From Dehalococcoidia bacterium (GTDB taxonomy: Bacteria; Chloroflexota; Dehalococcoidia; Lucifugimonadales; UBA3495), in assembly GCA_965205495.1 (NCBI GenBank), contig CBDBHA010000002.1, positions 294,451-358,450 on the forward strand: a stretch of 64,000 nt of DNA, read 5' to 3'. How positions within the stretch are numbered: the stretch's first letter is position 1; each line of letters opens with the position of its first letter. The translations under genes were made by a program, and so were the position numbers. Under the pieces are notes generated by a model. That model was not told where the DNA came from and made no database searches. It worked only from the letters and a program-made list of their open reading frames with translations. Shown here in pieces: positions 1,804 to 60,482 of this stretch.

Positions 1804-2295
1804 ATGTCCCGCGTGACACTGATTCAGCACATCAACATTCAGGTTAGCAACCGGGAACGGACCCGGGAGTGGTACGAGCAGGTCCTGGGGGCCGAGTTCT
1901 TGGACCGGGGCCCGGAGTCCAACAAGCGGCAACTGCAACTTAGGATTGGCAACGGCGAGATTCACACTACCGACAACCCCAACCCGGTAATCGCCCCGTC
2001 GGTCCACTTCGCCGTGGAGATCAACGACTGGGACGAGACCATCGAAAACCTGGAACGGTTGGGCGTCTCCTACACCACCCGCCCGGCGGTTTCCCGGGAG
2101 CAGAACTCCTGGGGCCAGCGGGACTACAGCGGGGGGCACTACACCTACGTCCACGATCCCGATGGCAACATGATTGAACTGGTGCACCATCCCCTGGGGT
2201 TGGAGGACGCCGACGGCGAGCGCGTCGATGTGCCCCACTATGCCGACAGCCCCCGTTGGGGCAAACTGCCGGAGTTCAGCAGCGTAGGATCCTAA
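1804..2295 (+). CDS. VOC/glyoxalase family protein
   Basis: HINI...WYEQVLG, HFAVEI, DPDGNMIEL; AGGAGG before ATG 1804. Confidence 0.9.
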   Translation: MSRVTLIQHINIQVSNRERTREWYEQVLGAEFLDRGPESNKRQLQLRIGNGEIHTTDNPNPVIAPSVHFAVEINDWDETIENLERLGVSYTTRPAVSREQNSWGQRDYSGGHYTYVHDPDGNMIELVHHPLGLEDADGERVDVPHYADSPRWGKLPEFSSVGS

Positions 2296-2438
2296 GACCG
2301 GACGGACTGCCAAGTTAGTCCGGTAGCAACCGGCCCAATGAGTGGGCGCCAACGGCTTTTGTTGAAGGCGCCCACCTTTTGATTTACCCTGTTGCCGTAC
2401 CCAAAACCTTTCGGACCCCGTAACCACGGAGTGTAATC

Positions 2439-3482
2439 ATGGAGTTTGGCCTTTTCCTAGAGTTCCCTCAGCGGGAAGGGACCACTGCCAGCGAGGCTTT
2501 CAAAGAGTCATTTTCGTTGGTTGATACCGCCGAGGAAATGGGTGTCGAGTCGGTCTGGCTGGCCGAGTACCACTTCAACGCCGGGCGGGTCCTTTCCTCT
2601 CCGGTAACCATCGCCAGCGCCATTGCCGCCCGCACCAGCAAGATACGCATTGGGTTTGGGGTCATCTGCCTGCCCTTAGCCCACCCGGTGCGGACCGCCG
2701 AAGAAGTCGCCGTCCTGGACCAAATCAGCGAGGGCCGTATCGAGTTGGGCGTGGGCCGGGGCACCTTCCCCAACGTCCATGAGGGGTTCAACACCCCGTT
2801 TTCGGAAGCGCGGGGCCGGTTTGAAGAGTCCCTGGAAGTCATCCTAAAGTGCTGGGGCGAGGAGCCTTTCTCCTTTGATGGGGAGTTCTTCACCTACAAA
2901 GACCTGGAAGTTTACCCCAAGACCTACCAGCAGCCACATCCTCCGGTGCACGTTGGCGTCACCTCGGCGGAGTCTTTTCCCATCACCGCGGGCCTGGGCC
3001 GCCCGGTTATCGTCAACCCTTCCCGGGTGTTTACCCTGGAAGAGCTGGCCGGACCCATCGAAGCCTACCGGAAGGCTTGGCAGGACGCCGGCCACGAGGG
3101 GGAGGGCCACGTTGGTCTGCGGGTGCCGATCTACATCGCCGAAACCGAAGCGCAGGCCTTTGAGGAGCCCCGGGACAGCGCCATGTTCTCGGTGGAACGG
3201 CTGGGCAACCGGGTAGGCAGCTACGCCGACTACGGCCACACCACCGGCGACTGGCGGGCGGAGTCGGTCCGGATTCTGGGCATGACCTACGACGATTGGT
3301 TCCGGGACAAGGTGGTCTACGGCACCGTGGACTCGGTGACCGAGAAGCTCAAGGGTCTGAAGAAGACCCTGGGACTGGACCTCTTAATCTACGAGATAAA
3401 CTATGGGAACCGGATTCCGATGGAGAACCAGTTAAACTCCATGACCTTGTTCAACGAACAGGTGATTCCCCAGTTGGAATGA
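2439..3482 (+). CDS. LLM-class flavin-dependent oxidoreductase
   Basis: WLAEYHF, HPVRTAEEVAVLDQISEGRIELGVGRG. Confidence 0.95.
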   Translation: MEFGLFLEFPQREGTTASEAFKESFSLVDTAEEMGVESVWLAEYHFNAGRVLSSPVTIASAIAARTSKIRIGFGVICLPLAHPVRTAEEVAVLDQISEGRIELGVGRGTFPNVHEGFNTPFSEARGRFEESLEVILKCWGEEPFSFDGEFFTYKDLEVYPKTYQQPHPPVHVGVTSAESFPITAGLGRPVIVNPSRVFTLEELAGPIEAYRKAWQDAGHEGEGHVGLRVPIYIAETEAQAFEEPRDSAMFSVERLGNRVGSYADYGHTTGDWRAESVRILGMTYDDWFRDKVVYGTVDSVTEKLKGLKKTLGLDLLIYEINYGNRIPMENQLNSMTLFNEQVIPQLE

Positions 3483-54427: not shown

Positions 54428-55531
54428 TTGGGGCCAACGGTGCGAGACCTGAGCCGGCATAAACTCAGTCTGGGGCTTTTCGGCGCCAACTGCTCCGGCG
54501 GCTTGGCGGTCACCACCGTGCCGGAGCGTTGGGAAGCCAGTTGGGAGAACAACCGGCGGCTGGCCGTGATGGCCGACGACGCTGGCATCGACTTCATGCT
54601 CCCCTTGGGCCGTTGGAAGGGCTACGGGGGAGTAACCGACCACAACGGCTCCAACTTCGAGACGCTGACCTGGGCCTCGGGCATCCTGGCCGCCACGGGC
54701 AATTTGAAGGCGTTTGGCACCGTCCACGTTTCTCTGTTCAACCCGGTGGCCGCCGCTAAGCAAATCGTCACCGCCGACCACATTGGACAAGGGCGGTTCG
54801 GATTGAATGTGGTCTGCGGCTGGAACCGGGACGAGTTTGACATGCTGGGGGTGGATTTGGCCCAGCATGACCGGCGGTACGACCAGGGACAGGAGTGGAT
54901 AGACATTCTCTACCGGGCCTGGGACCGCGAAACCCCTTTCGATTATGAAGGGGTCTTTTACCAGGTGCGGCAGACGGAAATCAACCCCAAGCCTTATGGC
55001 GGGGGGCGCCCCCTGGTCGTCTGCGCCGGCAACTCGCCCCGGGGCCGGGACTTCGCCGCCCGCAACGCCGACATGATGTTCACCAACATCCGTTCCGGCG
55101 TGGACCAGGTGGAGGCCAATACCTCGGAACTGCGGGCGTTGGCGGCGGCGTACCACCGGCCCATCGGCGTGTTTACCAACGTGGCGGTGATATGCCGCGC
55201 GACGGAAAAAGAGGCGGAAGAGTATTTCCACTACTACGCCGTGGAAAACGCCGACCAAGAAGCGGTGGAGAATATGGTGGAAGGCCGTGGGCTGAACAAG
55301 CCGGGGCAGTCGGAAGAGGAGCGTTGGGCGATTCGGCGGCGGGCCGGGGGCGGCAACGGGGCATTGCCCATCATTGGGACTCCCGACCAGGTGGCGGAGA
55401 CAATGCGGGGGTTGTCTCAATCCGGCGTAACCGCCCTGGCCATGGGGTTCGTCAACTACCTGGAACATTTCCCGTATTTTCAGCAAGAAGTCCTGCCCCG
55501 GTTGGGGCGGTGGGGCCTGCGGGTGGAATAG
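54428..55531 (+). CDS. LLM-class monooxygenase (RutA/SsuD-like)
   Basis: NCSGG, RWKGYGG, GRFGLNVVCGWN, AGNSPRGRDFAA; start uncertain. Confidence 0.9.
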   Translation: MGPTVRDLSRHKLSLGLFGANCSGGLAVTTVPERWEASWENNRRLAVMADDAGIDFMLPLGRWKGYGGVTDHNGSNFETLTWASGILAATGNLKAFGTVHVSLFNPVAAAKQIVTADHIGQGRFGLNVVCGWNRDEFDMLGVDLAQHDRRYDQGQEWIDILYRAWDRETPFDYEGVFYQVRQTEINPKPYGGGRPLVVCAGNSPRGRDFAARNADMMFTNIRSGVDQVEANTSELRALAAAYHRPIGVFTNVAVICRATEKEAEEYFHYYAVENADQEAVENMVEGRGLNKPGQSEEERWAIRRRAGGGNGALPIIGTPDQVAETMRGLSQSGVTALAMGFVNYLEHFPYFQQEVLPRLGRWGLRVE

Positions 55532-55583
55532 GCGCCGGCCGCGCCTTTAGCCCACCAATTTCTGACCTAGTGGAGAATTTGCG

Positions 55584-56582
55584 ATGACTACTGCCCAACC
55601 CGGCCGGACCATAGAGGCTCGGCCAATTGGCGGCAACGCGGCTTTAACCGTGATAGGCGTTGGACCCGGACAGCCGGGCCCTTGGCCGTTTATCAGCGGC
55701 ATACCCAACCCGGAAACCGGTCTGGTTGGGCCTCCGCCGGAGTATCTGGCGGTGGCGGCCTGGGCCGCTTGAACCGTGGTCACCGTGGTAGGCGTGGCCT
55801 ACCGGGGCGGCATACCCTTGGACGACATTCAGGTGGAGTTTCAGGTGGAGTCCATGGAGCTTCCCCATGCCCTGGGGTTTGGGGTATGGGAGAAAGTCAC
55901 CTTGACGGGAGACATTTCCGAGCCGCAGCGGGTCCGGTTGGAGCGGGCTTCGCGCTTTTGCCCGGTGGGGCAAGCCCTCACCAAGGGGGCCATGGACATT
56001 GAAGACCGGCTGCGGTGGAGGTCAGGTGAGGTTGCAGCGGGGGCAACTGCGCCGGAGGACTTGCCGGACTTGGACGACGTCCGAACTCCCATACCTTCGG
56101 GAACGGTGCGGGCGATTTATCTCCTGGACACCAAGGAATACGAAGCCGACGGGGCAATGTCCCACGAAGGGGAGGCCAAGGTCTACGTTTCCTGCGAAAA
56201 TTTGACCCGTTCCAGCACCTGGACGGTTTTGGCGGGGCATAGCTCCCAGGGACTGGTGCCGCCGCCTTTTCCCACGGTGCAGGCGGCCTGGGCTGCGTCC
56301 ACCGCCGCGACGTTGGACCGGCTTTTGCCACCGACCACGGAGGGGGGCGACGGCCTGAGCGTCCGGTTGGAAATGGCCGGGGCGGGCAGCCGGGGGCAAT
56401 CTCAGGGGAGCGCCGACCGAGGGGAAGTGCGGCGGCGGGCGGTTTCCCGCCGTATAGACCTGCCGGGCACCCCGGCGGAGATTCCCTTGGAAGTAGTCCA
56501 AGCCGCCCTGCGCGCCGATCCCGTTTCGGCGGCGTTCATTCACGGGGGCGTGCTGTTGGACGACGAAGTGGTGGTGGCATAA
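55584..56582 (+). CDS. Probable selenoprotein: tandem OsmC-like protein, UGA codon 63 read as Sec
   Basis: In-frame TGA 55770-55772 in AAWAA*TVVT; downstream FCPV; SECIS-like hairpin; second domain AAWAAST. Confidence 0.75.
55783..55805 (+). promoter_or_regulatory. Putative bacterial SECIS element
   Basis: GGTAGGC-GTG-GCCTACC perfect stem; loop starts with G, 21 nt after UGA. Confidence 0.65.
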
Positions 56583-56628: not shown

Positions 56629-56838
56629 ATGGTTACCGTAACCGAAAGAGAAACCGAACTCTCCCAGGGGACCGGGGGGCGTTACTGCGAGGGGTGCCCC
56701 CGCTGCCGGGACGCCAACGCGGGGTTTTGCTCCCAGCGGCACCCGCAATACAACAATCTACACCCGGTTTGCCGGCGTTGCGGGCATTGTGTCCTGCGGG
56801 GCAGTCACAGCGACGACACCTCGGACCTACAGGAGTAG
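56629..56838 (+). CDS. Small Cys/His-rich putative metal-binding protein
   Basis: CEGCPRC...C...H...CRRCGHC; AGGTG upstream. Confidence 0.6.
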   Translation: MVTVTERETELSQGTGGRYCEGCPRCRDANAGFCSQRHPQYNNLHPVCRRCGHCVLRGSHSDDTSDLQE

Positions 56839-59175: not shown

Positions 59176-59709
59176 ATGGCAGAAGAACGAGACCTGAACG
59201 GGCTGCCCCGGGAAAAACTGGCCCAAGTGTTGGACTCTTTCCGCGACCCCGACGTTTTCAACGCGGTGACCGGCCCCTGGAAGTCGCGGGTGGTCTGGCA
59301 GGACGGAATGCGGGCGCGGGCCTATATGCGGAATCACCAGGTGGATATGGACGAGCCCGGCGACCTGACCGCCACCGACGTCGCCGCCAGCGCCCATGAG
59401 CAGTTGTTGTCGGCCATTGGAAGCTGCATGACGGTGGGCTTCGTGGTCAACGCCACCAAAAAGGGTGTCCGCATCCATGACCTGGAAGTTGCGGTGGAAG
59501 GCTATTTTGACAACATCCGCAAATGGGCCGGTGTGGAAGACGAGGGCAATCCCGGATACGGCCGGATTTCGGCCAAGTGTTTCGTGCGGGCCGACGCCGA
59601 CGAAGAGACGTTGCGGGAAATCTGGCGGCTGGCGGTGGAAGGTTCGCCGGTGACTCAGTCGGTGGTTAACCCAACCTCGGTCGAGACCGACTTTGAAATG
59701 GTTGGTTAA
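59176..59709 (+). CDS. OsmC family protein (single resolving-Cys-less type)
   Basis: DEP, EQLLSAIGSC, SPV in place of CPV. Confidence 0.85.
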   Translation: MAEERDLNGLPREKLAQVLDSFRDPDVFNAVTGPWKSRVVWQDGMRARAYMRNHQVDMDEPGDLTATDVAASAHEQLLSAIGSCMTVGFVVNATKKGVRIHDLEVAVEGYFDNIRKWAGVEDEGNPGYGRISAKCFVRADADEETLREIWRLAVEGSPVTQSVVNPTSVETDFEMVG

Positions 59710-60482
59710 TGACCACCTTTGTCACCGCTGAGTGGGTCGCGGACCATATTGGCCGGACGGGTTATCTGATAATTGATCCGCGGTCGGCCATGCGTTATCT
59801 CATGGGCCATCTGCAGGGGGCGGTTAGCGCCCCTTTCAAGAAGTTTCAGGGGCCCGATGGCCGGTTGGGTCCGCCGGAACAACTGGCCGCGGCTTTTGGA
59901 GACGTTGGCTTGGGGGACGATGTAACCCCGGTGCTGTACGACCATCAGGACGGGCGCAACGCCGCAATGGCCGCGTGGGTTTTGGAATTCCTGGGGCGGG
60001 ACGATGTTCACATAATGAACACGCGCTTCGAGGCCTGGAAGGAGCAGGGCCGGGAGGTCTTTTACCGGCCCGTGGCGGTTCAGTCCAAGGCTTTTACCCC
60101 CAGGTTGAATCCCAAGGTAAGGGCCACTTTGGAGGACGCCGCCAACCCGGGAGAAGCCAGGCTTTTGGACACCCGCTCCGTCGAGGAGTTTCGCGGCCAG
60201 GTTGAAACGGACCACCGGGCCGGTCACATTCCCAACGCGGTAAACCTTCCCCACATTGAAACCGCCGGCGCCGGCGGGAAATTTCTGGTTGATCCCGCCG
60301 TGCTGCGCCGACGCCTGGCCGGTTTGGGCATCAACCCCCAGGACTCGGTGGTGGCCTATTGCCGCAGCGGAGTCCGCGCTTCACTGGCCTACCTGGCCAT
60401 GAAGCAGGCGGGCTATGACGTCCGCCTCTACGACGGCTCCTACGCCGAATGGATGGACAGCGGCTTGCCGGTGGAAGTTTAG
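59709..60482 (+). CDS. Sulfurtransferase (tandem rhodanese)
   Basis: GHLQGA, GHIPNA, YCRSGVRA, LYDGSYAEW; TAATG overlap. Confidence 0.93.
   Translation: MTTFVTAEWVADHIGRTGYLIIDPRSAMRYLMGHLQGAVSAPFKKFQGPDGRLGPPEQLAAAFGDVGLGDDVTPVLYDHQDGRNAAMAAWVLEFLGRDDVHIMNTRFEAWKEQGREVFYRPVAVQSKAFTPRLNPKVRATLEDAANPGEARLLDTRSVEEFRGQVETDHRAGHIPNAVNLPHIETAGAGGKFLVDPAVLRRRLAGLGINPQDSVVAYCRSGVRASLAYLAMKQAGYDVRLYDGSYAEWMDSGLPVEV

Follow-up and report, generated by a model that had tools for sequence, protein, structure and literature searches.

Ohr and OsmC peroxidases are homodimers of chains of about 140 residues, with two active sites and a cysteine (Cys) at the peroxidatic position. Selenocysteine (Sec)-containing members of the superfamily have also been described: an 'OsmC-like protein' selenoprotein family, COG1765, with the motif UxxT, was defined from three Sargasso Sea sequences (Zhang, Fomenko & Gladyshev, 2005, Genome Biol 6:R37). 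This family is still listed in 2022 and 2026 reviews, and BSepDB (2026) notes Dehalococcoidia genomes with 46-49 selenoprotein genes. Here, we describe a gene at positions 55584-56582 of a 64,000-nucleotide stretch of a Dehalococcoidia bacterium genome (GCA_965205495.1, contig CBDBHA010000002.1, positions 294,451 to 358,450 of the forward strand; this whole stretch is the window), which very probably encodes a genuine selenoprotein made of two OsmC-like domains in tandem. A preliminary description of this DNA, made from its letters alone, had stated that Sec-containing OsmC-like proteins were already on record, in agreement with the 2005 paper. What that paper gives for the earlier proteins is common to ours as predicted: the OsmC superfamily, Sec in the active-site helix and a selenocysteine insertion sequence (SECIS) directly 3' of the UGA. 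With the Ohr/OsmC peroxidases of known structure (for example PDB 2bjo, 6eb4, 1n2f, 1qwi, 1vla) it has the fold and both redox positions in common, but it would be one chain with two unequal domains, a single active site and Sec.

The gene reads as a single frame on the plus strand, from ATG 55584 to TAA 56580-56582, with one internal TGA at 55770-55772 (codon 63). The preliminary description had joined the open reading frames (ORFs) 55584-55772 and 55776-56582 into one frame split by that TGA, and re-reading the sequence returns the same frame and the same motifs: EYLAVAAWAA-TGA-TVVTV around the TGA and RFCPV at residues 124-128, then QAAWAA-S-TAATL ... ADPV in the second half, where Ser239 lies at 56298-56300 and Asp312 at 56517-56519. 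The features of the locus are the following.

55572 to 55575, plus strand: GGAG resembling a Shine-Dalgarno site, 8 nt upstream of the ATG and evident from the sequence itself.
55584 to 56582, plus strand: complete coding sequence (CDS) of the predicted tandem OsmC-like selenoprotein, 332 residues including Sec63, stop TAA.
55584 to 56033, plus strand: N-terminal OsmC-like domain, residues ~1-150, with the predicted Sec63 and with Cys126 in FCPVGQ (from Pfam, AlphaFold2 topology and PDB profile alignments).
55770 to 55772, plus strand: UGA codon 63, predicted to be read as Sec; homologue of the OsmC/Ohr peroxidatic Cys.
55786 to 55804, plus strand: apical hairpin of the putative SECIS, with an 8-bp stem (55786-55793 / 55797-55804) and loop GUG (55794-55796).
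55959 to 55961, plus strand: Cys126 codon TGC, homologue of the OsmC/Ohr resolving Cys, invariant in the 17- and 8-sequence alignments and aligned with the Cys of Ohr FCPYS.
56076 to 56579, plus strand: C-terminal degenerate OsmC-like domain, residues ~165-332, with Ser239 and Asp312 replacing the redox residues (from hhalign, secondary-structure order and conserved motifs).

The Pfam OsmC model (PF02566) matches the read-through protein at 39.2 bits over residues 49-139, spanning the TGA (gathering cut-off 27.5), while the downstream ORF alone reaches 19 bits and the upstream ORF has no match. Public databases present the locus otherwise: 119 of the best 120 of 314 public protein matches begin after the TGA, at about 247-273 residues; some are named 'OsmC family protein', or 'hypothetical protein' where they come from metagenome-assembled genomes (MAGs) of Dehalococcoidia, the SAR202 cluster or Chloroflexi. 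Standard annotation misses the gene, as the preliminary description had foreseen. Taken at face value, such entries make the TGA a true stop, with a functional product of ~268 residues starting at GTG 55776 and the upstream 62 codons left as a separate small ORF or a decaying remnant, and TGA does serve as an ordinary stop in this genome, ending 5 of the 25 long non-overlapping ORFs of the window. However, the upstream 62 codons are conserved at the protein level, with G32, P33, P51, Y54, L55, W60, A61 and A62 invariant in the 17-genome alignment; the OsmC domain and its long helix straddle the TGA; full-length homologues with Cys exist; and the shorter product would be missing the three strands at the N-terminus together with half of the helix that bears the active site. 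The fixation of the TGA across loci at 51-77% protein identity, described below, is incompatible with a decaying gene. Termination at codon 63 is therefore a very improbable account of the locus. We conclude, from comparison of sequences, that 55584-56582 is one gene, that its predicted product is a 332-residue selenoprotein and that the TGA is not a gene boundary.

Conservation of the UGA was followed through homologous loci gathered as the union of three overlapping sets: relative genomes, species-representative genomes and metagenomes. All 83 loci that cover the site, representing 56 distinct 48-nt UGA-hairpin sequences and 59 distinct complete CDS, have TGA at the codon-63 column, and neither TGC, TGT, TGG nor any other sense codon occurs there at the DNA level in these 83 loci. 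A six-frame search of 60 relatives yielded 16 full-length homologues (51-68% identity), each with exactly one in-frame TGA; counting the window's gene, the TGA stands at the column W-A-A-TGA-T in 17 of 17. The scan of species-representative genomes gave 42 loci, all from Dehalococcoidia/Chloroflexota MAGs, with TGA in 42/42, and this set is unbiased for codon 63 because it was retrieved through the CPVGQ pattern. Metagenomes contributed 28 loci, of which the 24 that cover column 63 all have TGA. Reads with a sense codon had been named beforehand as evidence against Sec; the contigs of four public sequencing runs show no variant at 55770-55772. Where short contigs of other organisms stack on the gene, they do so only on 55750-55807, its best conserved part at the nucleotide level. 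The TGA is also bridged by a contig from a metatranscriptome library, although origin from an RNA library is not proof of transcription. Directly 5' of the UGA, codon 62 (55767-55769) encodes Ala as GCT in all 59 distinct CDS despite its four-fold degeneracy, and this invariance may be a context requirement for Sec decoding.

Among proteins, a profile search of 1.84 billion representatives returned 264 matches at E <= 0.001. Six tandem homologues have Cys at column 63 (P0123, P0126, P0129, P0135, P0137 and P0149), and all six keep Cys126 along with Ser...Asp-Pro in the second half; P0135 diverges after about residue 222. The other five, metagenome proteins labelled 'uncharacterized OsmC-like protein' by JGI, have the same two-domain layout as the window protein, their N-half carrying C...CP(V) and their C-half S...DP. 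They differ from it in having Cys for Sec and in being distant, the six Cys homologues showing only 31-44% identity. The single-domain relatives of the N-half tell a similar story, with Sec at the same column in two sequences from the class and order of the window organism (G255 and G041) and Cys in a third (G089). Alternation of predicted Sec with Cys at one column is what classically marks a true selenoprotein. The homologue comparison suggested by the preliminary description has thus come out in its favour, with a fixed TGA in the near relatives and Cys in six distant tandem ones.

One entry departs from this pattern and counts against Sec: P0006, a JGI protein from a 1362-nt contig, has Trp at column 63. 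It would suit a scheme in which near-cognate decoding, or an alternative code, lets the TGA specify one of the standard residues Trp, Cys or Gly, with no Sec involved. But the Trp is seen in the protein entry only, and TGA stands in each of the four DNA loci that resemble P0006 most (77% identity); likeliest, a gene caller translated the TGA under another code. Of the Trp, Arg or Gly homologues that the preliminary description had set against its own reading, DNA offers none and the protein databases this single entry. The genome also has the full Sec machinery, and its selD itself requires that UGA mean Sec; a co-varying hairpin stands at SECIS distance; TGA serves as a stop elsewhere and even terminates a homologue of the tandem gene (G029); and the site is the position of the redox-active Cys, where Trp or Gly would abolish function. 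Decoding as a standard amino acid is accordingly as improbable as termination, and Sec remains our reading of codon 63.

The Sec machinery itself had been listed among the things to check. In the genome of the window (2 contigs, 3.82 Mb), all of its components score above curated cut-offs.

selA: 546.8 bits (cut-off 267.9).
selB: 318.5 bits (cut-off 242.25).
selD, with its own in-frame TGA: 395.6 bits (cut-off 125).
tRNA-Sec: 66.4 bits (cut-off 47); ARAGORN calls it tRNA-SeC, anticodon TCA.

The UGA of selD (SHCAG-U-AAKLS) is followed by a stem with the same GUG loop as in the tandem gene. At the selD locus (L011, on G000:C1; positions ~1171-1600 of the locus), the 5' end of the gene, UGA and hairpin included, is present twice as a ~222-nt tandem direct repeat, which may be either genuine or an artefact of the assembly.

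Downstream of UGA-63, the stem GGTAGGC (55787-55793) / GCCTACC (55797-55803) encloses the loop GTG (55794-55796), and with a U.G pair (55786/55804) at its base the stem reaches 8 bp. The preliminary description had placed this hairpin 21 nt after the UGA, a distance that holds for the start of the loop; the stem begins at 14 nt. Across the 56 distinct sequences, standard pairs fill 502 of the 504 cells (99.6%) of a 9-pair structure, compared with 27-58% of cells in controls that shift the 3' partner by 1-3 columns. Pair 21:31 occurs as A-U (33), G-U (13), C-G (6) and G-C (4), and pair 19:33 as G-C (50), G-U (4) and A-U (2); double-sided changes are found in 12 cells, the covariation score was reached by 0 of 500 shuffles, and the apical loop follows the pattern GUN among homologues. 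Several compensations involve non-synonymous changes, Val to Met being paired with Tyr to His, and Tyr to Asp with a change at Val that is synonymous, so the RNA structure constrains the protein sequence. Synonymous variation is lowest over the hairpin, dipping across codons 61-75; normalised synonymous-codon entropy over the 59 distinct CDS falls to 0.48 across codons 61-72, from 0.78 gene-wide, and A62, V68, G70 and A72 use one codon each in all 59. The suggestion that the hairpin is SECIS-like, with covariation as its check, has therefore come out positive.

Several observations pull in the other direction. For the 63-nt stretch, in DNA of 61% GC, the minimum free energy is -23.3 kcal/mol with z = -0.59, a value equalled by 46 of 200 shuffles; folding energy, not being significant against shuffles, was dropped as evidence, and since it is no better than chance the case for the hairpin rests on the comparative data. 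There, the double-sided changes are confined to a few clades, and relatedness alone can beat shuffles without any structure; one distinct sequence, found at three loci (L045, L046, L048), has a C.A mismatch in the stem; and because the hairpin lies within conserved coding sequence, part of its conservation is protein-driven. A scan of 55500-56100 against Rfam (E <= 10) gave three chance-level matches and no SECIS family. With these points set beside the fixed UGA, the Sec/Cys pairing, the co-varying hairpin and the Sec machinery, all of them comparative results, we predict that Sec insertion at codon 63 is almost certainly genuine.

The predicted protein was modelled with AlphaFold2 from the 17-sequence alignment, with a mean predicted local distance difference test (pLDDT) of 83.8 and a predicted template modelling score (pTM) of 0.88. 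The secondary-structure elements follow one another identically in the two halves, as beta-beta-beta / long alpha / beta-beta / alpha-alpha / beta. The model, a check that the preliminary description had proposed, has the OsmC/Ohr fold: the top Foldseek matches are OsmC/Ohr structures (probability ~1.0, best E 4e-3), and VIA-align places 31 OsmC/Ohr entries at Z 9.4-7.1, with unrelated rows at Z 5.6 or lower. Comparison of the N-half and C-half profiles by hhalign (probability 88.5%, E 2.7e-6, 124 columns) pairs WAA[U]T with WAAST and FCPV with xDPV, and the WAAST and DP of the C-half are invariant or nearly so among homologues. On this profile evidence the two domains are homologous, having arisen by internal duplication, and the earlier picture of a 332-residue protein with two OsmC-like domains, Sec/Cys in the first and Ser/Asp in the second, with both sides of the TGA belonging to one duplicated domain, agrees with the alignments. 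The same description had called the second domain catalytically dead: Ser and Asp do occupy both of its redox positions, and its inactivity is read from these residues. We presume that the C-domain is catalytically silent.

Against assigning the protein to this fold and to peroxidase function stand a number of weak or missing matches. Foldseek gives no match at E <= 0.001; PDB sequence E-values to Ohr are weak, at 0.011-0.9; and the C-half folded alone reaches a pLDDT of only 56.1. Because of this low confidence in isolation, the OsmC fold of the C-half rests on hhalign and on the topology within the full model; its poor fold alone fits an intertwined two-domain body and proves nothing. Family models are not reached either: the protein scores 18.2 bits on the Ohr model TIGR03561 (cut-off 88.85) and 11.9 bits, E 0.15, on NF041052 (cut-off 95), the NCBIfam 'OsmC-related (seleno)protein' model, and the OsmC subfamily model TIGR03562 (cut-off 85.8 bits) gives no match to it at E <= 1. 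Finally, among 10 representative loci scanned, no neighbour of thioredoxin, lipoyl or OhrR type was found.

Some of these observations would favour a protein that is a real tandem OsmC selenoprotein but not a hydroperoxide peroxidase, with Sec63 and Cys126 serving another thiol/selenol redox or carrier role, such as the disulfide or persulfide handling that has been vaguely predicted for proteins of the COG1765/YhfA type. Among PDB sequences, the best match is the COG1765-type OsmC domain of 9wo1_A (GACTAMT...CPV; E 3.5e-6), Ohr following only at E >= 0.011; the NCBIfam Ohr/OsmC subfamily models are not reached; the neighbourhood contains no conserved gene for a reductant or a peroxide-stress regulator; and the 2005 paper classes the Sec-OsmC family as a 'predicted redox protein' (Genome Biol 6:R37). 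On the other side, in a PDB profile search (E 0.011-0.02) U63 falls on the cysteine of the Ohr motif AAC and C126 on that of FCPYS. Positions 63 and 126, with their spacing, thus coincide with the two cysteines, peroxidatic and resolving, of Ohr enzymes that have been characterised, and the closest solved folds are all OsmC/Ohr peroxidases. We consider a non-peroxidase role rather unlikely, though well ahead of the stop-codon and standard-amino-acid accounts, and by analogy with Ohr/OsmC favour, with some reserve, peroxidase-type chemistry.

For such a peroxidase, the following scheme can be proposed. UGA-63 would be decoded by Sec-tRNA(Sec), delivered by SelB bound to the GUG-capped hairpin that starts 14 nt downstream. 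The product would be a single-chain pseudo-dimer of two OsmC-fold domains derived from the internal duplication, in which the N-domain retains the putative redox pair Sec63 ... Cys126 (A-U-T-V-V-T ... F-C-P-V). As the C-domain has Ser239 ... Asp312 at the equivalent positions, only one of the two active sites of the classical homodimer would survive. By homology with Ohr/OsmC, Sec63 would attack a hydroperoxide or related oxidised substrate; the resulting selenenic acid on Sec63 would be resolved by Cys126 to a selenenylsulfide, and a dithiol donor, whose involvement we infer, would re-reduce it. The C-domain may supply the partner-subunit side of the single active site, and its invariant residues E195, G196, E197, K199, H219, S220, S221, R285 and R289 are candidates for that side. 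In Ohr, the peroxidatic Cys has catalytic Arg/Glu partners; residue 52 of the tandem proteins is not conserved, varying between Glu, Gln, Pro and Gly.

This architecture also sets the protein apart from the catalogued family closest to it. NF041052 is a 144-position single-domain model, whereas the window protein is a 332-residue two-domain fusion; single-domain relatives score 45-49 bits on the model. The genome's own NF041052-type gene has the motif F-U-E-M-T, as against A-U-T-V-V-T here, and this difference, together with the score far below the cut-off, places the tandem family outside the catalogued one. In the searchable literature we found no pairing of a selenoprotein with SAR202 and no tandem or fused two-OsmC protein, only an esterase-OsmC fusion; BSepDB entries and selenoproteome supplements lay outside this search and may list the protein as 'OsmC-like'. 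The superfamily is known and so is this kind of recoding; the asymmetric single-chain OsmC pseudo-dimer, with Sec invariant in its clade, is not captured by the catalogued family.

The window carries a second, conventional gene of this kind: a single-domain OsmC-family gene at 59176-59709 on the plus strand, 2.6 kb downstream (Pfam 52.7 bits), with Cys at the peroxidatic position (IGSCMTVG) and Ser at the resolving position (EGSPVTQS). The ORF that follows it, 59709-60482, contains a CRSGVR motif, which we take to be rhodanese-like. Elsewhere in the genome, a third OsmC-type gene (L119, G000:C2:48456-48722, plus strand) keeps Cys at its peroxidatic site (GIVACAVNMV) and has an in-frame TGA where the resolving Cys would stand (TWKRR-TGA-PLYGS), with a GGTCGC/GCGACC hairpin and a GUG-containing loop ~17 nt downstream of the TGA; it is possibly a variant with Sec at the resolving position. 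The NF041052-type gene (L115/L117, G000:C2:1288775-1289199, minus strand; ASCITF-TGA-EMTQ) matches the model in two frames (50.6 + 60.7 bits), with an apparent frameshift ~12 codons after the TGA that could be an assembly error or the mark of a pseudogene.

Around the tandem gene, two luciferase-like monooxygenase (LLM) genes lie directly upstream, and a 69-residue Cys-rich ORF, a Phd/YefM antitoxin and a MetE-like gene lie downstream. The adjacent LLM gene is kept in only 5 of the 42 species-representative loci, all close relatives, while some LLM-family gene occurs within 3 kb in 14/42. The 69-residue ORF (56629-56838, plus strand), with several CxxC-like pairs and no Pfam match, recurs at the same position with 76-98% identity in 8/42 loci (close relatives) and elsewhere in one more; being conserved, it is probably a real small protein. 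A 770-residue amidase-domain ORF stands downstream in ~18/42 loci (counted by eye from the ORF list, with one representative named by Pfam), and the neighbours at other loci include an amidase-domain protein, SBP_bac_5, alpha/beta-hydrolases, major facilitator superfamily (MFS) transporters and transposases. With no conserved reductant or regulator among the neighbours, gene context adds little.

As to distribution, 18 of the 36 genomes of the window organism's own family-level clade (f1) have a match, and in a 401-genome sample of the phylum the full-length form occurs only in the window's genome. At one of the 42 species-representative loci (L085; OZ244795.1, positions ~2100-3000 of the locus), the tandem gene is interrupted after about residue 100 by an insertion sequence (IS) that encodes a DDE-type transposase, with both flanking parts recognisable.

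We tentatively propose, as a reading that goes well beyond the selenoprotein itself and that we hold with clearly less than even confidence, that these proteins form a distinct, uncatalogued family with obligate Sec: asymmetric single-chain OsmC pseudo-dimers with one composite active site built from both halves, confined, in the genomes sampled, to one family-level Dehalococcoidia clade that includes SAR202-labelled MAGs, where they might act as high-turnover organic-hydroperoxide reductases protecting cells with very large flavin/luciferase-like monooxygenase repertoires. Since public entries are without the active-site residue, selenoproteome counts for Dehalococcoidia/SAR202-type organisms may miss the tandem family. 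The hairpin covariation that forces Val to Met and Tyr to His or Asp is a clear case of RNA structure constraining a protein. As predicted, the protein would be a natural single-chain version of an obligate homodimeric peroxidase in which one active site has been kept and upgraded to selenium and the other dismantled. It would offer a clean system for studying the contribution of the partner subunit to OsmC/Ohr catalysis, and the reason for which one clade keeps Sec without exception while Cys serves its distant relatives.

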